From assembly GCA_031271345.1 (NCBI GenBank), contig JAISVX010000003.1, positions 167,374 through 231,373 on the forward strand: a DNA stretch of 64,000 bases, in the 5' to 3' direction. The notes beneath the pieces are model-generated. The model saw only the letters and a list, made by a program, of their open reading frames with translations. It was not told where the DNA came from and searched no databases. Within the stretch, counting starts at the first letter, position 1. Each line of letters opens with the position of its first letter. A program made the translations under genes and the position numbers. Positions 5,662 to 40,169 of this stretch are shown here, one piece after another. This DNA comes from Lactobacillaceae bacterium. Lineage in GTDB: Bacteria; Pseudomonadota; Alphaproteobacteria; RF32; CAG-239.

Positions 5662-6501
5662 ATGCTAGATAATATTTTGAAGATTGAAAATAAGTTTGAT
5701 GTTTTTATGTTTGATTTATACGGTGTTTTGTGGGATGGGTGCAAGCTGATTAATGAAGCCGACACAATGCTCAAAGAACTTCGCAAGCAGGGAAAAGCTG
5801 TTGTTATACTTTCGAACGCGGCGCTTAGAGCATATTCGCTTGAAGATAAATATGCCGAAAGAGGGCTGATAAAAGGCAGGCATTATGATAAATTTGTAAC
5901 ATCTGGAGAGATGGCTTACGACTATTTCAGCAATGATAAAAAAGAGCTGAAATATTATGTTTTCAGAAAGCCCAATCCGGGGATTTTTACAGACAGCAGA
6001 TATAAAAGAGTTTCAAAAGCCGAAGACGCGGATTTTATCTACGCTGGTCTGCCAAGCATATTGGAAGGGGAGGAGTGGAAAACAACAACCTCTATGGAGC
6101 CTTTTATGGATGAGCTTAATATGTTTAAAAAGCTTAAAAAACCGATGATTTGTATAAATCCAGATTTAAAAACTCCGGCTGGGGATGGAAAGCCTCCGTT
6201 CTTATGCGAAGGTTCTGTCGCTTTGGCATATCAAGAACTGGGCGGCGACGTGGAGTTTATCGGCAAGCCTTATCCAGAGGTTTTTGACTTTGCCTTACAG
6301 GATTACCCGGATACGGATGACAATAGGATACTAATGATAGGTGATACGCTGGAAACAGATATTTTAGGCGCTAATTCTTATGGAATTAAATCTGCGCTGG
6401 TAACTACCGGCATATCTTATGACAATATGATGTCGGAAGGTCTGTCAAATATTAAGGAATACGCCAAGGCGCTTGATATAGAGCCGAATTTCTACTTCTA
6501 A
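5662..6501 (+). CDS. HAD-superfamily hydrolase, subfamily IIA-like
   Basis: Motif I FMFDLYGVLWDG and C-terminal motif MIGDTLETDILGAN. Paralogous to 42697-43668. Confidence 0.7.
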   Translation: MLDNILKIENKFDVFMFDLYGVLWDGCKLINEADTMLKELRKQGKAVVILSNAALRAYSLEDKYAERGLIKGRHYDKFVTSGEMAYDYFSNDKKELKYYVFRKPNPGIFTDSRYKRVSKAEDADFIYAGLPSILEGEEWKTTTSMEPFMDELNMFKKLKKPMICINPDLKTPAGDGKPPFLCEGSVALAYQELGGDVEFIGKPYPEVFDFALQDYPDTDDNRILMIGDTLETDILGANSYGIKSALVTTGISYDNMMSEGLSNIKEYAKALDIEPNFYF

Positions 6502-32719: not shown

Positions 32720-33158
32720 CTATATTGTAGCGGCTATATTGGCTTTTCCAGTCTTTATGCTGTTTTTCTGGGTGCTGTCCGTGCAGAATAAAATTAATAA
32801 CGCGGAGACTGTAATGGTCGCCGTAACCGGATATGACCCGAGAGACCTTCTTTCCGGGCATTATGTTGTACTGAGACCTGTATGGGATGATACGGATTAT
32901 GAGCAGTTTAACAATAATAAATTTTCCAGAAATGATTTTGATTACAGCTATAGATTCTATCTTCCCGAAGAAGATGCGGAGTATCTTGACAGAGTCGTCG
33001 GACGTACGCGTGATTTGAAGATGTTTTTGGAATTTGCTATGCCGGCAAACTCTAAGCCGATTGTTAAAGAACTTTACATTGAAGGATTGAAGTGGAAAGA
33101 GTGGCTGGATAAAAACCCTGCTCCCAAGAATGAAAATGACCGTTATGACAGATGGTAA
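32709..33158 (+). CDS. GDYXXLXY-domain-like protein (low confidence)
   Basis: N-terminal TM anchor, then SGHYVVLRPVW, which resembles the GDYxxLxY motif. Overlaps both neighbouring genes. Confidence 0.3.
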   Translation: MKRNYIVAAILAFPVFMLFFWVLSVQNKINNAETVMVAVTGYDPRDLLSGHYVVLRPVWDDTDYEQFNNNKFSRNDFDYSYRFYLPEEDAEYLDRVVGRTRDLKMFLEFAMPANSKPIVKELYIEGLKWKEWLDKNPAPKNENDRYDRW

Positions 33159-33804
33159 AAAAATTGTTTTTGTCAGCGACTTCGACGGCACAATAACGGA
33201 CGAAGATTTTTTCACCTATACGTCAAACGAATATTTTGATAATAATGCTCTAAAGCCATGGAGAGAATATCTTGCCGGCAAAAAGACGCATTTTCAGGCA
33301 TTGAAAGAAATGTTTGCGCAAATCCGAGTGCCGGAAGAAAGTCTTGAAAAACTTATATCGGAAATCAATGTGGATAGTAGAATTGATGATGTTTTTAGGC
33401 TGTGTAATGAAAAAAATATAAAAATTTATATTTGCAGCGCGGGAAATGATTATTATATAAAAAAGATGATAGGAAAAAAACTTGCGGACTATGATATTAC
33501 TTTGGTGACAAACAAAGGAGAATATTCTCAAAACAATGGTTTGGCAATGACTGCTCCGCTAAAGAGTGATAAGTTTTATGATAAAAATATCGGCATATCA
33601 AAATTTGCGCTGGTCAATTCTTTGAAAGAAGATGGGGACTTTGTTATCTTTGCCGGAGATGGTCCGCCAGATTTTGAGCCGGCAAAAATAGCGGATGTCG
33701 TCTTTGCCCGAAAAATGCTTTTGGAAGAATGCAGAAAAGCGGGGATAAAGACTGAAAAGTTCAATAACTTTGCCGATATTTATAATTATATTAGGGAGAT
33801 ATAA
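33130..33804 (+). CDS. HAD-superfamily phosphatase (MtnX/PSP-like subfamily IB)
   Basis: Motif I VFVSDFDGTITDEDF. Motif IV FAGDGPPD. 224 aa. Confidence 0.6.
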   Translation: MKMTVMTDGKKIVFVSDFDGTITDEDFFTYTSNEYFDNNALKPWREYLAGKKTHFQALKEMFAQIRVPEESLEKLISEINVDSRIDDVFRLCNEKNIKIYICSAGNDYYIKKMIGKKLADYDITLVTNKGEYSQNNGLAMTAPLKSDKFYDKNIGISKFALVNSLKEDGDFVIFAGDGPPDFEPAKIADVVFARKMLLEECRKAGIKTEKFNNFADIYNYIREI

Positions 33805-34881
33805 ATGAAACCATATCCGACATATACAAACAAGCAGATAAATATTCCGTATCTCTTGAAGATAGGAAACGGAAAAACTCAGAAAATAGGAAAGTATCTG
33901 TTTGATAAAGACATGAATAATATTGCTTTGTTTACGGGATATGGAATAGACGAGCTTTTAGGCGACAAGCTTTACGGCGGCTTGGAAATTCAGAATATTA
34001 AAATATTGCATAAAGAAATAATAGACGACATCAGCATTGAAAAAATAACCCATACGGCTTTTAATCTGCCGCCGGTCATTGATGCCGTTGTGGGCATCGG
34101 CGGCGGCAAAGCTTTGGATTTTGCAAAATATTGCGCATATCTTTTGAAAATTCCGTTTATAAGCGTTCCGACTTCAACTTCCAATGACGGCTTTTGCAGT
34201 CCTTCTTCATCGCTGACGGTTGACGGGAAACGAAAATCGGTAAAATCCGGCATACCTTATGGTGTGGTAATAGATTTGGATATAATAAAAGGCTGTCCGA
34301 AAATATTTTTATATTCGGGTGTTGGGGATATGGTTTCTAAAATTACCGCATTGTGGGATTGGAAAGAAGCTTTTAATAAAGGTTTTGAGCGTTTTAATGA
34401 TTTTGCGTCTCTTCTCGCTTATAATTCTTTGGATTTATTGTTTAATAAGCATTCTTTTAATGTTGAAAGCCCTGAGTTTCAAAGAAGCCTTTCCAACTCG
34501 CTGCTCGTCAGCGGAATAGCTATGGAAGTTGCGGGAACATCCCGCCCTGCCAGCGGTTCCGAACACTTAATATCCCATGCGCTGGACAGCGTATGCAAAA
34601 AACCGAAAATGCACGGAATTCAAGTCGGCGTTGCAACATATTTATGCGCGCTCCTGCAGAAAAATGAAAACACGGAAGGCGTTAAAACTATCTTGTCAAA
34701 AACTGGTTTTTTTGAATTTGCCAAGGGCGATACGTTTGCTAAAAAAGAATTTATCGAAGCATTGAAGATAGCTTCAGGAATTAAGCAGGATTATTATACC
34801 ATACTTTCCGAAGTTGATAGTTTTGAACGCGCGGTAAAATTTATTGAAACAGACGGCATATTAAAAACCATTATAAAATAG
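33805..34881 (+). CDS. DHQS-fold iron-containing ADH-family enzyme, glycerol dehydrogenase / glycerol-1-phosphate dehydrogenase (AraM/EgsA)-like
   Basis: GIGGGKALDFAKY (GGGxxxD nucleotide motif), VPTSTSNDGFCS, and metal-binding SGSEHLISHALD. ATG immediately follows the HAD gene's stop. Confidence 0.6.
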   Translation: MKPYPTYTNKQINIPYLLKIGNGKTQKIGKYLFDKDMNNIALFTGYGIDELLGDKLYGGLEIQNIKILHKEIIDDISIEKITHTAFNLPPVIDAVVGIGGGKALDFAKYCAYLLKIPFISVPTSTSNDGFCSPSSSLTVDGKRKSVKSGIPYGVVIDLDIIKGCPKIFLYSGVGDMVSKITALWDWKEAFNKGFERFNDFASLLAYNSLDLLFNKHSFNVESPEFQRSLSNSLLVSGIAMEVAGTSRPASGSEHLISHALDSVCKKPKMHGIQVGVATYLCALLQKNENTEGVKTILSKTGFFEFAKGDTFAKKEFIEALKIASGIKQDYYTILSEVDSFERAVKFIETDGILKTIIK

Positions 34882-34899
34882 TTATATGCTTTAAAAGGC

Positions 34900-34934
34900 G
34901 AAGCGACCAAAACCGTTTTGGTTTTGGTCGCTTC
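34900..34934. terminator. Rho-independent terminator downstream of 33805-34881
   Basis: Perfect 15-bp stem GAAGCGACCAAAACC / GGTTTTGGTCGCTTC with loop GTTTT. Confidence 0.65.
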
Positions 34935-35018
34935 TGGTAAAAGTCCGCCCGATTTGAACCTTACGTTCGGTCCCTTATACGGGGCAGGCGAATTGCCGAA
35001 ATTCGGCAGGCGTTGTTT

Positions 35019-35560
35019 TTCATGATCGTTTTTTTTGCGGGGTGGAAGCGGCTTGGTCGTATTCGCGCTTCATCTTTCGTCCCCGGATTCTACATTTTCG
35101 CCGATTTTTTATAGGATAAGCTATATTTTATAACTTTTTTGGACCTACGGTTGACTAGGGCATTGCTCTAATCTGGGCGAGATTTTTTCGTTTCATGCGA
35201 TCGGTTTTTGCGGGGATGGCGCGCGGTTTTTTGTTTCGCGGTCCATATCGTTCCCCAGTTCTACACTATTTGCCGCATCTGGCGTTGGAATTTTTTGGGC
35301 GATAAAAGCTTAGGTGTCTGCTCTTATCTTGACGAAATTTTTCTTCTTCATAAGACGGGATTTTTTCCAGTTTTTTTTGCTTTTTCCCGGGACGGCATCA
35401 TTTGGGTGCGTCTCGGATAGGAGCGAAGTTTTTGTTTTTCATCATAAATCGTTTTTGTCAGTTGGGGAATCTTGTTTGCTGTTTCTTGGTAGCAATTACG
35501 GTCCCCTGATTTTCAAAACGTTTTTCTGCGTCATATACGGGCGGTTTTTATGTTATTTGT
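35019..35560. repeat. ORF-free region with 3-4 degenerate direct repeats (~95-170 nt units beginning TTTCATG...GCGGGG...TCCCCGGATTCTACA)
   Basis: Unit 1 (35019-35113) and unit 2 (35191-35285) align at roughly 75% identity by eye. Weaker copies start near 35345 and 35436. GC is visibly higher than the flanks. Only spurious ORFs under 85 aa are present. Confidence 0.45.
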
Positions 35561-35720
35561 AAATATAAATCTAAAATTGTAACTTGTTAAGAATATATAT
35601 AACAATATTTTTAGACAAAAGCAAGTGGTTTTTTGAAAATTTTTCAAAAAAAATTGTTTATCATTAAAAATCAATATGTTATTGTCAATATTTATTCGAC
35701 TCATTCTGGCTTATAAACAA

Positions 35721-35747
35721 AAAAGTAAGCTTTGAGAGCTTACTTTT
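35721..35747. terminator. Rho-independent terminator downstream of 35767-36261
   Basis: Perfect 11-bp stem AAAAGTAAGCT / AGCTTACTTTT with T/A runs on both sides. Confidence 0.65.
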
Positions 35748-35766
35748 TTGTTTTTCGTGTTGTTTT

Positions 35767-36261
35767 TTACACAACCGCGCAATACTCGGCTTTAGCTGAA
35801 GTTTGGCGCTTGGAACCTTGTTCAATGCTTTTTTTGGCAGTGATAAGGTCGTTGAGAGACTTTGCGTATTCTCCCAGTTCCGAAAACCGTTTTTTCTTAC
35901 CCTCAATCCCAAGTGTTTCAGCGAGTTTCTCTTGTTCTTTGATGCGGTTGTTTGCGTCAAGCATTACTCGGTAAAAAACTTTTGAGGAAATAGCCTTGAG
36001 AAGGTGCTGTTTGAAAACATGGTTGCTGTTTAACCAGAAACGACGGTTCAAATGCGTGGATTTTTGTCTTTTTCTTCCGATTCTATCAGAGAAAACGGTT
36101 GAAACGATAAATCCGTTCAAAGCTTTTCGGGCTTCCTGAGTGAATTTCCTTTCGTCATTTGGGGCTGCGGCAGCTTCTTTAATTTCATTAACTGCTTTCT
36201 CAGTGTTTCTGAGTTCAACCTTTTCGATAAGGTTTGTTTTTGCTATTACATCCATAAGCAA
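35767..36261 (-). CDS. Hypothetical protein, 164 aa, no recognisable family; GC somewhat above background
   Basis: Clean ORF with a terminator downstream. Charged, helical-looking sequence. Confidence 0.4.
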   Translation of the reverse strand: MLMDVIAKTNLIEKVELRNTEKAVNEIKEAAAAPNDERKFTQEARKALNGFIVSTVFSDRIGRKRQKSTHLNRRFWLNSNHVFKQHLLKAISSKVFYRVMLDANNRIKEQEKLAETLGIEGKKKRFSELGEYAKSLNDLITAKKSIEQGSKRQTSAKAEYCAVV

Positions 36262-36427: not shown

Positions 36428-37036
36428 TTATAAATCGGCGACAACCCTAATGGTTATAATTTCGTCAGGATACTGGACCTGACCGTTTGGACCTTTGCCT
36501 TTTGTAATCATATCGACATATTCCATTCCCGATGTAACTTCGCCCCATATTGTATATTGCCCGTCGAGCCATTCGCAATTGTTAAAGCATATAAAAAACT
36601 GGCTGTCGGCAGAGTGTGGGTGCATGGCTCTCGCCATTGAAACCGTTCCTCTTTTATGCGGAAGATTAGAAAATTCCGCGGGGATCTTCTGACCGCTTCC
36701 GCCTGTTCCTGTTCCAAGAGGACATCCTGTCTGCGCCATAAAACCTTCGATAACTCTGTGAAATTTTAATCCGTCATAGAATTTGCTTCTGACCAGTTCT
36801 TTTATTCTGGCAACATGATTAGGCGCCGCGTCTGCAAACATTTCTATAACAACGTCGCCGTCTTTAAGTTTCAGCACCAAAGAGTTCTCGGGGTCTTTGA
36901 CCTTATATGAATGTTTAATCTTTTTTGCGCGTGCTTCGCTTACGCCGATTTGTTTTGTTTCGGATTTTGGTATTGATGTGGTTTTTTTTGCCGCTAATTT
37001 TTTTGGTTCATCCGCTTTTTTAATTTCTTTTGTCAT
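36428..37036 (-). CDS. ppiB: Cyclophilin-type peptidyl-prolyl cis-trans isomerase with a K-rich N-terminal extension
   Basis: Cyclophilin motifs FHRVIEGFMAQTGCP and GQYTIWGEVTSGMEYVD. Confidence 0.85.
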   Translation of the reverse strand: MTKEIKKADEPKKLAAKKTTSIPKSETKQIGVSEARAKKIKHSYKVKDPENSLVLKLKDGDVVIEMFADAAPNHVARIKELVRSKFYDGLKFHRVIEGFMAQTGCPLGTGTGGSGQKIPAEFSNLPHKRGTVSMARAMHPHSADSQFFICFNNCEWLDGQYTIWGEVTSGMEYVDMITKGKGPNGQVQYPDEIITIRVVADL

Positions 37037-37097
37037 TATCTATGCCTCCTAATAATCTAATTCAGAGAAAACTTCTTTATTAATATAGTTATCATTA

Positions 37098-38060
37098 TTA
37101 AAATTTCCCACCATTTAATACGAAATCGACCCGCTCTTTAGCATTTAGGTTTTTGGGATAGTGTTTGTCAATGTTCTTAAGAACTTTTTGCAATCCGATG
37201 CCGTTGGCGATTTGTATCGCCAGTCCAGGTCTTGCGTTAAGCTCTAACATCATCGGACCTTTGTCTTTATCAAGCACAATATCCGCGCCGATATATCCAA
37301 GCCCTGTCATGTCATACGCTTTGGAGCCAATATCAAGGTGTTCTCTCCATAGGGGGACAGCTAAATCCATAAGGTTTGCGTTTGTATCTGGATGGATGGT
37401 AACGGGCTTGTCTTTTAATACGGCGTTTAAAGCTTTTCCCGTGCTTATATCCAATCCGACGCCGACCGCTCCCTGGTGGAGGTTTGCTCTTCCTCCAGAC
37501 ATTTTTGTCGCCAACCTCATCATTGTCATCGCGGGAAAGCCCTTATAAACAATAATCCTGACATCGGGAACTCCCTGATAGCTGAAATTATTGAAAATGC
37601 TGCTGAAATGAACCAGTTCTTCAATCACGACATTATCATATCTGCCGCCCAAACTGTATAATCCGCTCAAAATATTGGAAATATGCTGGTACACTTCATT
37701 ATAGGTTATTTTTCTTCCCGAAGCAGTGGTGAAAATTTCTTTATTGTGTTCCGTAACAACCAGAATGCCGCGTCCGCCGCTTCCCTGAGCCGGTTTTATA
37801 ACAAACTCTTTATAATCTCCTATAATATCCAGAATATTTTTTGCTTCGTGCTGATATTCGATTATTCCGATGAGCTTAGGAGTGTTTATTTCATGTTCTT
37901 GAGCCAGCGTTTTTGTAATAACCTTATTGTCAACCAGAGGATATAAGCTTCTTTTGTTGCATTTGGATATAAATTTATAATTGCGGGCATTCATGCCGAG
38001 AACTCCATTTTCGTGAAGTTCTTTCGGGGTCGCAAAAATTTTGGAAAGCAGCTTAAACAT
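37098..38060 (-). CDS. RimK-like ATP-grasp ligase (alpha-L-glutamate-ligase-related)
   Basis: ATP-grasp motifs (FVIKPAQGSGGRGI; MLELNARPGLAIQ). Sits in an operon with the 7TM-transglutaminase-like and retropepsin-like genes. Confidence 0.75.
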   Translation of the reverse strand: MFKLLSKIFATPKELHENGVLGMNARNYKFISKCNKRSLYPLVDNKVITKTLAQEHEINTPKLIGIIEYQHEAKNILDIIGDYKEFVIKPAQGSGGRGILVVTEHNKEIFTTASGRKITYNEVYQHISNILSGLYSLGGRYDNVVIEELVHFSSIFNNFSYQGVPDVRIIVYKGFPAMTMMRLATKMSGGRANLHQGAVGVGLDISTGKALNAVLKDKPVTIHPDTNANLMDLAVPLWREHLDIGSKAYDMTGLGYIGADIVLDKDKGPMMLELNARPGLAIQIANGIGLQKVLKNIDKHYPKNLNAKERVDFVLNGGKF

Positions 38061-38063
38061 CTG

Positions 38064-39599
38064 TTATCCCTTAACCAAAGGAGCAAATCTGGTCAGCTCC
38101 AGCAGTCTGTATCCCGTGTAAGTGCCGAGAAGCATAACAAGGAACAGGATTACGTAGTTTATTTCGCCAAAAGCGTAAGTTATGTGTCTTATATATTCAT
38201 TGCTCACAACAAGATATGTCATAACGGCGGTTATTAGGCTGAAGACAATCTCTCTGGTCGCGTTTGCCGCGCCGTCTTCTTCCCAGGTGATTGAAGCTCT
38301 CTCAATAATCCATGCCATAATGATTATCGGGAAAAACACGGCAGATAAACCTATGTTTAAGCTGAACTTTTGACCGATGATAGTCATTGCCTGCATGATT
38401 ATTATGACAAAAATAACCACGGCGGATATTCTGGGAACCAGCAGAAGGTTAAGTTTTGACAGCAGTCCGCGCAGGAGCATGCCTATAATAAGGATGATTG
38501 AAAACGAAATCATGCCGCTTACAAAGCCTGTCTGCACCAGTGACATTGCAATCAGCATAGGGGTAAATGTTCCCATTGTTTTCAAGCCGATTACGTTGCG
38601 GATTATCACAATAATTAATATTGCGAGAGGGAACACGCTTAACCATTTGATAATGTTTTGTTCGTTGAGCGGCAGGCTGAAAATTGAAGAGTCAAAATAT
38701 GCCTGCTGGTCGGCAATTCTTGCTCTGTGGGAGGCTAAGTCAAAGTTTGAGCTTAAAGACTTTAATACGGAAAACTGGATTGAAGAATCTTCTCCGCCCT
38801 CAATATCGACCAAGCCTTTATCACCTCTTTGAAAAATGACAAAATCTCCGGGAATGCCGCGCTTTCCCGTTCCGATATTGTATACTCTCCATTTGTTTCT
38901 AATATATGCTTCGACCATCAAATCCGCTTCGAGAGATTTTTTTCCTTCTTCAAGCTTTACGCCCTTAACCACGCGTGACGAAACCTTTTCTATTGCCAAA
39001 AGCTCCCTTATTGCCGCGGCGATTTCTTCCTGTGATATTTTAAACGGCAGATAAGAAGATACTAACGGGTGGGCAGGCTTTTGATTAAATATATGTATAA
39101 GCTTTTCAGGCAGATCGCCTTCCATTTCCTTTGTCAGTTCGATAATTTCTTTCGCAATTGCTATTTGCCTCTCGTCAAGCTGTGGTATTTTAGGAGCCTG
39201 AGGTTTAATGTCTTTTGTCAGACCTTTTGTATCTTCATTATCAAACAGCATAACCCGATAATAGATGTTTTGTTCGGAGTTTCTGGGGTTAGATGTTAAT
39301 ATAAGCTTTTTTTGTCCATTTTTTTCGGTCTTAACAACATACCCGGTTGCAATAATGCTGTCGTCAAGGACTTTAAAATTATCAGAGTCTTCTGGAGTCG
39401 TTATTGAAACTTTTATTTTTTCGCCGGTAGGCATAAAGGATATATGTTCTTCAATTGACCAAACGCCTGTGCTTTGCTTTGGCTTGAAGCTAAAGCCCCA
39501 GTATTTTACTTTATAGTACGTGCTTGTTGCCGCAACAATTATTGAGATGAGCAGACATACAAATAAAACAAATCTGACAGACTTTATTTTTTTTATCAT
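38064..39599 (-). CDS. Inactive-transglutaminase-like domain fused to a C-terminal 7TM module (7TM_transglut-like)
   Basis: N-terminal TM anchor, ~280-aa extracytoplasmic domain, then 7 predicted TM helices at the C-terminus. 4-nt gap to the RimK-like gene. Confidence 0.55.
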   Translation of the reverse strand: MIKKIKSVRFVLFVCLLISIIVAATSTYYKVKYWGFSFKPKQSTGVWSIEEHISFMPTGEKIKVSITTPEDSDNFKVLDDSIIATGYVVKTEKNGQKKLILTSNPRNSEQNIYYRVMLFDNEDTKGLTKDIKPQAPKIPQLDERQIAIAKEIIELTKEMEGDLPEKLIHIFNQKPAHPLVSSYLPFKISQEEIAAAIRELLAIEKVSSRVVKGVKLEEGKKSLEADLMVEAYIRNKWRVYNIGTGKRGIPGDFVIFQRGDKGLVDIEGGEDSSIQFSVLKSLSSNFDLASHRARIADQQAYFDSSIFSLPLNEQNIIKWLSVFPLAILIIVIIRNVIGLKTMGTFTPMLIAMSLVQTGFVSGMISFSIILIIGMLLRGLLSKLNLLLVPRISAVVIFVIIIMQAMTIIGQKFSLNIGLSAVFFPIIIMAWIIERASITWEEDGAANATREIVFSLITAVMTYLVVSNEYIRHITYAFGEINYVILFLVMLLGTYTGYRLLELTRFAPLVKG

Positions 39600-39614
39600 T
39601 ATGAACCTTCTTTA

Positions 39615-40169
39615 CTATTTTAGTGTGTTTTTTAAGGCTGTATCAACGACAGCGCGGCCGGTTAAAAGATTTCTTCCGACAAGGATTTGATAGTTAAACT
39701 TATCTCTTTGGGCTAAAGAAACTTTTTCTTTTATCACCATGTCTCCAATCTTTATATCCATAACAACAAAAATTCTTTCCTCGCTGTCATCAATTCTTTT
39801 AATTTTTTTAATTTCTTCAATCTTTTTCTCAAAAGTATGTTTTTCCCCGGTTTCTCTGTTTATCACGCCGAAAGAAACCCATTTTTTGCCGTCTCTTTCA
39901 AATATTTTTTGGCTGTAAACGTCAATTGAAGTAGTTTGAGCGCCGGTGTCAATTCTGGAAATAAACGGAGATTTTATCGGAGGAAGATAAATAGGTTCAA
40001 TTTCGCCGATTATTCCTAAAGGCTGCTTTACCTCATGCTTAACTTCAATTCCGGGAACAATTCTTGGCACGTCCTGCGTCGCTGTATCAGGGTGCGAACA
40101 GGAAGAAACAAAAAGCATTGATATAATCAACAATATTTTATTCAGTTTTAGTACATGATTTTTATTCAT
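39615..40169 (-). CDS. Retropepsin-like aspartic protease lipoprotein (RimK-associated 'putative ATP-dependent zinc protease' family)
   Basis: Lipobox FVSSC. Aspartic-protease active-site motif RIDTGAQTTSID (D-T-G-A). Confidence 0.6.
   Translation of the reverse strand: MNKNHVLKLNKILLIISMLFVSSCSHPDTATQDVPRIVPGIEVKHEVKQPLGIIGEIEPIYLPPIKSPFISRIDTGAQTTSIDVYSQKIFERDGKKWVSFGVINRETGEKHTFEKKIEEIKKIKRIDDSEERIFVVMDIKIGDMVIKEKVSLAQRDKFNYQILVGRNLLTGRAVVDTALKNTLK

Follow-up and report, generated by a model that had tools for sequence, protein, structure and literature searches.

What a gap with degenerate direct repeats between two convergent genes might encode is the question raised by positions 34882-35766 of a 64,000-nucleotide stretch of DNA from an uncultured bacterium (contig JAISVX010000003.1; Logan SRR14710911, NCBI locus tag LBR70_03365), called the window here. 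With 885 bp, the gap exceeds every other part of the window that lacks a long open reading frame (ORF), the next gaps measuring 383 and 356 bp and both containing tRNA genes. Its neighbours are a Fe-ADH_2/glycerol-1-phosphate-dehydrogenase-like gene on the plus strand (33805-34881, referred to as the dehydrogenase gene) and an orphan gene on the minus strand (35767-36261). The length rank of the gap and its place between convergent genes had been noted correctly in a preliminary description made from the letters of the window, which also stated that the gap holds only junk ORFs and proposed a non-coding RNA locus or a decayed element. We found that the repeats end in conserved ORFs of 12-20 codons on the minus strand, contrary to the dismissal of all ORFs in the gap. 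Judging from sequence comparisons, we assign a probability of roughly 0.6 to the reading that the gap is a minus-strand transcription unit with a tandem family of translated micro-peptide genes, whose product would be free basic peptides.

The clearest pair of repeats, 35019-35113 and 35191-35285, is real, but its identity of 68% (70 of 103 gapped columns) is below the earlier estimate of about 75%. Repeat units were delimited on the minus strand as U1 (35530-35398), U2 (35404-35305), U3 (35290-35150) and U4 (35115-34960), and their local alignment scores were compared with those of 1000 dinucleotide shuffles. The pair U3-U4 scored 42 versus 20 +/- 3 for the shuffles, none of which scored as high (0/1000). 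Two weaker copies had also been proposed: the one near 35345 was significant against the 35191 unit (U2-U3, 1/1000 shuffles), but the one near 35436 was marginal as DNA (13 to 259/1000, with U1-U4 at 13/1000) and is recognisable through its peptide only. The remaining unit pairs were not significant. Identity among the units is 58-68% overall, and in a single-sequence nhmmer search across the whole window the U3-U4 match reached an E-value of 0.07-0.1 only. The possibility that the unit is dispersed was not borne out: a profile of the four units found no further copy in the window or in the related loci L001-L008, the further related loci L009-L018 being checked for the array by the peptide model only. 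A dispersed or mobile repeat was rejected after blastn searches against plasmids and phages returned AT-rich noise only and a degenerate codon pattern gave 0 matches in viral contigs; no terminal inverted repeats were found. The repeat is real, local and degenerate.

On the minus strand, a short reading frame opens behind an ATGAA(A/G) in every unit. The first of the five minus-strand mini-ORFs, A0 (35496..35534), encodes MTQKNVLKIRGP and stops at TAA. It is followed by A1 (35398..35445; MMKNKNFAPIRDAPK, stop TGA), A2 (35310..35351; MKKKNFVKIRADT, stop TAA), A3 (35155..35196; MKRKNLAQIRAMP, stop TAG) and the divergent, extended copy A4 (34961..35023; MKNNACRISAIRLPRIRDRT). The A4 unit is a duplicate of the A3 unit, and the mini-ORF departs from the other copies by an Arg to Ser change, a loss of exactly one codon near the N-terminus and a moved stop; A4 is possibly decaying, and it matched the hidden Markov model (HMM) of the family with E = 2e-5 when the model included A4 itself. 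The peptides typically have about 13 residues (12-20 across the five ORFs, 12-16 in the family) and a net charge of +3 to +4. Their consensus is M-K-(K/R/N)-K-N-F-(A/V)-x-(I/V)-R-(A/D/G)-x-P, followed by an immediate stop or by 1-3 extra residues, with Pro at position 8 or at the peptide end, and length differences among the copies amount to whole codons. The conserved peptides are hydrophilic and cationic, with no hydrophobic stretch above 3 residues and no membrane-spanning stretch. The orientation agrees with the composition of the gap: its plus strand has an AT skew of -0.34 to -0.45, i.e. it is strongly T-rich, and since the A-rich strand is the coding strand for the genes of this window, the minus strand was taken as the sense strand. 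The raised GC content that had been noted earlier was also found (0.43-0.50 over 34900-35400 versus 0.39 in the window), adjoined by an AT-rich part with a GC content of 0.24-0.27 at 35500-35800.

The evidence for translation comes from a second species. For the three best window copies alone, hand-counted differences at the three codon positions were 12, 11 and 19, which is not significant and becomes informative only with the copies of the related locus L010, to which the only route was a homologue of the adjoining orphan gene with 28% identity. In L010 the orphan gene, a terminator, an AT-rich promoter-like stretch, four mini-ORFs and a bidirectional terminator (6050-6083) follow each other in this order on the same strand. 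The mini-ORFs lie at 5673 (MKKTFKKIRDGPIF), 5750 (MKKKNFVPVRADPKLF, the orthologue of A1, with a DNA identity of 63%), 5843 (MKRRNFALIRAY) and 6003 (MKRKNSATIRDAP); a GTG ORF at 5912-5989 (...WIKKFLRGSKP...) is a candidate variant or relic copy. A3 is 78% identical to the L010 copy c over 36 nt and 69% identical to copy d over 55 nt, a length that takes in the A-run and CCG upstream. Across the gap, the DNA of the two species aligns only at the mini-ORFs, over the approximately 20 nt upstream of them (an A-run, then (C)CG) and in the promoter stretch, at 63-78% identity. The proteins encoded nearby range from 86% identity (ATP-grasp enzyme and cyclophilin) through 78% (7TM protein) and 61% (retropepsin) to 28% for the orphan. 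The copies also keep their order, the first ending in KIRGP in the window and KIRDGP in L010 and the second containing NF(A/V)P(I/V)R..PK in both, and the array is therefore older than the split of the two species.

An HMM trained on the window copies A1-A3 alone was searched against 7391 ORFs of 8-29 codons from the window and 15 related loci. Three L010 copies ranked right after the training copies (E = 1.6e-7, 8.8e-6 and 7.3e-5), and the fourth L010 copy and A0 came next (E = 0.12-0.14). A0 is a probable member of the family, as suggested by its rank directly after the clear members in this unbiased search (E = 0.14) and by its position and KIRGP end, which correspond to those of the first copy in L010. 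When the nine copies (five from the window, four from L010) were aligned by codons, differences by codon position numbered 140, 166 and 239. The proportions of synonymous and non-synonymous differences in frame were pS = 0.78 and pN = 0.36, giving pN/pS = 0.46 versus 1.09 and 0.91 in the shifted frames. The near-invariant Arg is spelled with different codons (AGG, CGA, AGA and CGT), as are Ile (ATC, ATA and ATT) and Pro (CCG, CCC and CCT), a pattern that is expected of a translated sequence and not of an RNA motif. Arg is kept in 8/9 copies and Pro three residues later in 6/9, two copies being without Pro; after Pro, an immediate stop follows in 3/6 copies and a variable tail in the rest. The coding evidence is good for so small a feature, but it comes from two genomes. 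What the comparison establishes is a conserved unit of a promoter-like region, 4-5 paralogous mini-ORFs under peptide-level constraint and a terminator, placed at a convergent junction.

The borders of this unit were examined for transcription signals. Strong terminators had been proposed on both flanks, and perfect stems are indeed present at both. A 15-bp hairpin (34900..34934) is common to the two convergent transcripts and is followed by GCCTTTT on the minus strand, but it has no T-run on the plus strand. A 17-bp hairpin (35715..35753) with A-run and T-run arms ends the orphan gene and insulates the array, and L010 has its counterpart behind the homologue of the orphan gene. On the minus strand, a promoter-like TTGCTT-N17-TATATA (35596..35624; -35 element 35624-35619, -10 element 35601-35596) was read from the sequence and lies below the threshold of our consensus scan. 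The stretch around it, 35634-35556, aligns with L010 5580-5657 (TTGACT...GTCTAAAAA...) with E = 2e-4, and sites of this type, with TTGCTT-N17-TATATT, precede genes in the related locus L004. The sigma70-like site predicted earlier was recovered close to the place given for it, as TTGACA-N17-AATGAT (35660..35688, 10/12 matches in the consensus scan), and a third candidate, TTAACA-N17-TATATT (35590-35562), also had 10/12 matches; the number of promoter sites in the scan was no higher than in shuffles. The earlier proposal of a minus-strand transcript insulated by terminators fits these findings in so far as the promoter-like stretch and the orientation are kept in L010 and the minus strand is A-rich. 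Such a transcript would be about 650-700 nt long, starting in the AT-rich 35560-35690 (near 35590-35650) and ending at the hairpin 34934-34900. Two further promoter-like sites were seen in related loci. L010 has a promoter-like CACTTGAATTTATCGAC after the terminator (6100-6228), behind which all six frames are interrupted by stops over the last 100 nt of the contig, and the 128 nt between terminator and contig end contain no open frame, L010 as a whole giving no Rfam match. In L004 (9540-9976, on the minus strand), about 230 nt that close with a strong terminator lie between a TTGCTT-N17-TATATT and a dUTPase gene; they may represent a small RNA or a leader and are unrelated to the array.

How ribosomes might reach the mini-ORFs is suggested by the frames between them. 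Every A-type start reads ATGA and is therefore overlapped by the TGA of another frame, and A1-A4 are each preceded by a 17-codon minus-strand ORF that ends at this TGA. B1 (35442..35495, TTG start, LLPRNSKQDSPTDKNDL) starts immediately behind the stop of A0 and overlaps the ATG of A1 with its TGA, and B2 (35348..35401, ATG start, MMPSREKAKKTGKNPVL) has ATGA overlaps with both the A1 stop and the A2 start, so that A0, B1, A1, B2 and A2 form an uninterrupted stop/start chain. B3 (35193..35246, ATG start, MDRETKNRAPSPQKPIA) and B4 (35020..35073, ATG start, MKREYDQAASTPQKKRS) overlap the starts of A3 and A4 in the same way. A GGGGA resembling a Shine-Dalgarno (SD) site lies 5 nt upstream of B3 (35256-35252) and another 6 nt upstream of B4, giving both ORFs plausible ribosome-binding sites of the type used by the window genes. 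Open frames of this kind that have a start codon arose in shuffles with a probability of about 0.09 each (B1 about 0.08, B2 about 0.09), and B3 and B4 count as one event because B4 arose recently from the B3 unit by duplication. Conservation of the B peptides is poor. A 57-codon ORF from 35704 that ends at the A0 start is probably spurious, since none of the candidate promoters lies upstream of its start. We infer that in the window the mini-ORFs, which have no SD site, are probably reached through the ATGA overlaps with the spacer ORFs by termination-reinitiation, i.e. that they are translated partly by coupling. The formyl-Met basic peptides, once released, would be the functional product; one RNA would yield several variants, like the transcripts of multi-peptide operons, and their action would be in trans, on a target that is probably anionic.

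The clear repeats have a period of 155-173 nt versus about 90 nt between A0, A1 and A2, because one clear repeat consists of a relic copy, a spacer and a live copy. One decayed A0-like copy (35247..35278, minus strand) reads ATG CGG CAA ATA GTG TAG (35278-35261) and runs on to GGGGA, and a second (35074..35110, minus strand), without a start codon, ends in GGGG(A) at 35084-35080. Both relics are visible by DNA alignment only, the first with the A0-B1 segment, and ungapped peptide scoring found none. The GGGGA upstream of B3 corresponds to former Arg-Gly codons of a decayed mini-ORF. The direct repeats are duplicated gene units, including two decayed copies, and the array evolved by local duplication and decay. 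The proposal of a decayed element holds for these relics but not for the conserved mini-ORFs, which show coding-type substitutions. Two other origins were rejected. A pseudogene of a neighbour gene is at odds with six-frame pieces of the gap, which match no window ORF, and a replication origin or iteron region is at odds with the absence of any DnaA box (TTATCCACA, up to 1 mismatch) in 34882-35766, with a cumulative GC skew that rises steadily without a switch and with repeats of 90-170 nt, iterons having 17-22 bp.

Several explanations compete with free peptides. The main one, though unlikely, is a translation device acting in cis, in which the nascent chain pauses or arrests the ribosome at the I-R-(A/D)-x-P(-stop) end and which would act as a sensor of translation status, as a ribosome-loaded, stabilised RNA or in the control of terminator read-through, and not as a supplier of free peptides. 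Nearly all bacterial ORFs of at most 16 codons with a known function are leader ORFs with a regulatory role. A chain of 12-16 residues stays in the exit tunnel until release, the overlap chain suggests organised ribosome traffic, and the last stop in L010 lies 5 nt from the terminator stem, but that in the window lies 26 nt away. The near-invariant Arg, the Pro three residues on and the frequent stop directly after Pro point the same way, Arg-x-x-Pro having the spacing of the RAGP and RAPP arrest motifs (PMC12992588). RAPP, RGPP, RAPG and RAGP, however, occur in 0/9 copies, two of which lack Pro, and the residue at the P-site would be D, M, A or G. In mutagenesis of ApcA, ApdA and ApdP only Pro, and partly Gly, was tolerated before the A-site residue, and after Arg only Ala or Gly (partly Ser, Asp and Pro) is allowed in this arrest class (PMC12992588, section 7); the RDGP of one L010 copy is the sole core near these requirements. 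Nor does the window have a co-directional gene downstream that could be regulated, the next feature being the convergent gene. More doubtful is a stand-alone 'ribosome relay' RNA, an overlapping mini-ORF chain without cargo in which nascent N-F-x-x-I-R-A/D-x-P-stop peptides, akin to a shortened SecM/RAPP core, would hold or pace the ribosomes. If true, this would be a sensor or buffer of translation capacity or of a small molecule, and a multi-copy arrest element untied to a downstream gene. We regard as improbable that the locus is a non-coding regulatory RNA, for instance a protein or RNA sponge with UCCCC motifs, whose ORF pattern is incidental or part of a dual function. Its GC content is raised for an intergenic region, its start codons have no SD site, and imperfect GGGG(A)/(U)CCCC hairpins with inner stems of differing sequence lie upstream of each of A1-A4: 35464..35506 (minus strand, upstream of A1, its 5' arm formed by the Arg-Gly codons of A0), 35389-35356 (minus strand, upstream of A2), 35256-35212 (UCCCC arm 35216-35212 within B3) and 35084-35039 (CCCC arm 35042-35039 within B4). 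Taken as a whole, the region surpasses its shuffles in folding on either strand, with z = -5 versus 20 shuffles for the 606-nt core. Each unit by itself, however, folds like shuffles on both strands (z = -0.9 to 0), relic codons and SD-like sites account for the arms of the hairpins, and in L010 the hairpins are absent and the ORFs are kept with synonymous codon changes. Because single units do not exceed shuffles and the hairpins are not conserved, structure was dropped as an explanation. The gap holds no tmRNA or RNase P, as anticipated in the preliminary description, and no other Rfam family (6S, OLE, GOLLD, ROOL, HEARO, riboswitches) at gathering score, the best matches reaching 25-28 bits against thresholds of 40-45 and being at chance level at E <= 10, and likewise in L010; the Rfam passes in the whole window are two tRNAs, both outside the gap. 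The structured non-coding RNA suggested there thus finds no support. A 7-bp perfect inverted repeat, CCGCCCG / CGGGCGG (34945-34951 and 35538-35544), brackets the whole array and closes the predicted fold of the 606-nt core, and could well be due to chance.

More improbable still is that the mini-ORFs encode precursors or substrates of the ATP-grasp operon upstream, as in a peptide-tagging system or in the pathways of ribosomally synthesised and post-translationally modified peptides (RiPPs). This operon (36428-40169, minus strand) lies 0.7-4.4 kb upstream of the array on the same strand and encodes a RimB-like retropepsin aspartic peptidase (RloA3-like), an inactive transglutaminase fused to 7 TM helices (the 7TM protein), an 'alpha-L-glutamate ligase-like' enzyme of the ATP-grasp type and a cyclophilin. 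In other systems, ribosomal peptides are ligated or cyclised by ATP-grasp enzymes, RiPP precursors typically come in multiple copies, and strand and order are the same in the window and L010. Against this, a leader plus a core would not fit into peptides of this length, the vicinity has no other RiPP enzyme and no exporter, and terminators and the unrelated orphan gene separate operon and array. The operon is, moreover, very widespread (7949 homologues of the ATP-grasp enzyme at E <= 1e-60) and occurs without the array in 8 related loci (L009, L011-L015, L017 and L018), and the array is therefore not integral to the ATP-grasp system. That the whole array is a decayed remnant (a pseudogene, a dead mobile element or a dead cassette array) or a chance similarity in a T-rich spacer we judge to be very improbable. 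The repeats are degenerate, two copies are relics and one is divergent, several relatives have no array and the neighbour gene is a fast-evolving orphan, but conservation between the species is far stronger for the peptides than for the non-coding DNA around them or for the orphan protein next to them, pN/pS is below 1 in the true frame, and the promoter-like stretch and the terminators are conserved. The lack of similarity to window ORFs, plasmids or phages and of terminal inverted repeats and dispersed copies argues in the same direction. We give almost no weight to tandem type I toxin-antitoxin modules like Ibs/Sib or Ldr/Rdl, each with a small toxic peptide and an antisense RNA. Repeated intergenic units with small ORFs recall such modules, as do weak opposite-strand hairpins with T-runs at 34993-35009 and 35163-35180, but hydrophilic, cationic peptides without a membrane-spanning stretch do not, the F-rich plus-strand ORFs are not in frame between units, and the opposite-strand features are absent in L010. 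These two terminator-like sites overlap A4 and A3, respectively, and one of them forms on the plus strand only, through G-U pairs.

The free basic peptides seem to be the most likely product, a reading favoured because the predicted transcript carries nothing else and encodes several variants in a fixed order, and because small peptides are usually produced in larger amounts by multiplying their gene copies. Several observations weigh against it. The array is present in two genomes only, so the substitution counts rest on 9 short, non-independent sequences, and it is missing from other close relatives. A0 and A4 are within background when scored by sequence alone, and 0/5 window mini-ORFs have an SD site versus 26/43 long window ORFs. 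Neither the spacer ORFs of the B frames nor the hairpins are conserved in L010, where instead a TTG overlapping the stop of the first copy opens a 12-codon in-frame extension of the second. Finally, no exporter, modifying enzyme (radical-SAM, YcaO) or receptor gene lies nearby and Pfam finds no transporter within about 10 kb, so that a role in trans is argued from anatomy alone.

Among the related loci examined, the peptide family was found in the window and L010 only. The operon order is kept in nine related loci (L009-L012, L014, L015, L017, L018 and one ENA contig), and L013 and L016, which start inside the operon, show part of it only. In L009 and L010 the cyclophilin gene, preceded by the genes for the retropepsin, the 7TM protein and the ATP-grasp enzyme, is followed by an extra gene and the orphan gene. 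In L009 the orphan homologue directly meets the convergent dehydrogenase gene and there is no array. L013 has cyclophilin, an unknown gene and the dehydrogenase gene with a 190-nt gap, the cyclophilin gene is followed by a DsbD-like gene in L011, L012, L014 and L015, L017 has other small ORFs at this position, and the contigs of L016 and L018 end too early to show it. Gaps measuring about 1 kb in which all called ORFs are tiny (34-75 residues) were seen in L014 (11351-12374), a few kilobases beyond the cyclophilin gene and past the DsbD-like gene, and in L017 (3961-5099), adjoining the cyclophilin gene. L017 encodes there a 34-residue Lys-rich ORF (MSGKTKDPRRKALIKAEQKEQKKRDKKQHKKAVK) and the 6-codon MKRTFC. 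The position seems to collect small, fast-changing genes. Synteny was also followed from the other side, through the dehydrogenase gene, and was rejected as a route to further arrays: the relatives L002-L008 have 58-77% identity, and the downstream region differs in L002-L004, the three loci read whose contigs reach past the gene. The labels of the related metagenome-assembled genomes disagree (the window, L002-L006, L011 and L014 being assigned to Lactobacillaceae / Lactobacillales, Alphaproteobacteria or Candidatus Endomicrobium), and some of these bins are probably mislabelled or mis-binned.

The orphan protein (35767-36261 on the minus strand; 5001-5534 in L009 and 5001-5495 in L010) has 162-164 residues and no Pfam or NCBIfam match, and PHROGs gave one weak match (E = 0.023). 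It was unique in a word-indexed protein search, and a full HMMER scan gave two distant relatives with 31% and 28% identity. It evolves very fast (28-31% identity versus 61-92% for its neighbours, and three clusters among 1.8 billion representatives) and always lies just upstream of the position of the mini-ORF array. Its AlphaFold2 (AF2) model is a plain all-helical bundle with a predicted local distance difference test (pLDDT) score of 74 and no fold match in the PDB. On the other flank, the bacterial gene in 33130-34881 (plus strand) scored 235 bits against the model of the archaeal-type NAD(P)-dependent glycerol-1-phosphate dehydrogenase, the cutoff being 413 bits. The glycerol-1-phosphate-dehydrogenase-like gene abuts a gene for an MtnX-like HAD-IB phosphatase, with DUF2157 and GDYXXLXY genes upstream, possibly a bacterial pathway related to sn-glycerol-1-phosphate.

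Genes of 12-16 codons are invisible to gene callers, and the array was left unannotated in the assemblies examined. A five-copy array whose peptides are better conserved than the neighbouring 162-residue protein suggests that some 'empty' intergenic repeats of uncultured bacteria are micro-peptide genes and makes a case for discovering small proteins by comparing tandem paralogues and orthologues. If trans-acting, the peptides would be a new family of very short, unmodified basic peptides produced as a multi-variant set; if cis-acting, they would widen the range of sequence and architecture of ribosome-pausing ORFs.

No Rfam family, Pfam domain or paper that we found describes the array, and a literature search for tandem bacterial mini-ORF arrays returned nothing relevant. 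It can be compared with several known systems. With the E. coli QUAD/Sib-Ibs and LDR/Ldr-Rdl loci it shares the manner in which it was noticed, as degenerate 100-500-nt direct repeats in a gene-free gap with a tiny ORF in each, but Ibs and Ldr are hydrophobic membrane toxins of 18 residues or more paired with an antisense RNA, and the array peptides are basic and hydrophilic. Graspetides combine ATP-grasp co-occurrence with a leader and a core containing pairs of Thr/Ser and Asp/Glu or Lys, a combination that the array does not show. The mini-ORFs resemble trpL, pheL, ermCL, tnaC and mgtL in their size of 8-25 codons and in encoding a conserved peptide too short to fold. These attenuators, however, sit in the 5' leader of the gene that they control, usually as one copy and with alternative hairpins, whereas the predicted array transcript has no other cargo and ends at a convergent junction, and no T-run terminators were found between its units on the minus strand. 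SecM and the RAPP arrest peptides, the nearest by motif, share with the array an Arg three residues before a Pro near the ORF end and a variable tail (PMC12992588, PMC10951233, PMC10951299), and SecM also has Ile before Arg (G-I-R-A-G-P versus I-R-A-x-P in the array). In contrast to the RAPP of ApdA and ApdP and the RAPG of ApcA, the array cores are RADP, RAMP, RDAP (twice), RDGP, RGP, RADT, RAY and SAIR, and arrest peptides are not 12-16 codons long without a long N-terminal part, repeated in 4-5 tandem copies and devoid of a downstream gene to regulate. The Staphylococcus psm-alpha 1-4 genes and the leaderless bacteriocins aureocin A70 (aurABCD) and garvicin KS (PMC6131525) encode peptides of 20-50 residues that are amphipathic or hydrophobic, come with transporter or immunity genes and have no sequence similarity to the array peptides, which have 12-16 residues, are hydrophilic, often contain a Pro inside or at the end and lack a transporter gene in the vicinity. 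In organisation these loci are nevertheless the closest to the array, with paralogous short ORFs arranged head to tail (5 copies in the window and 4 in L010), their own promoter (in the array, a promoter-like region) and terminator and cationic products without a signal or leader peptide. The array is thus of an already known kind, the bacterial tandem small-ORF loci, with a distribution that is so far narrow and comprises two uncultured species.

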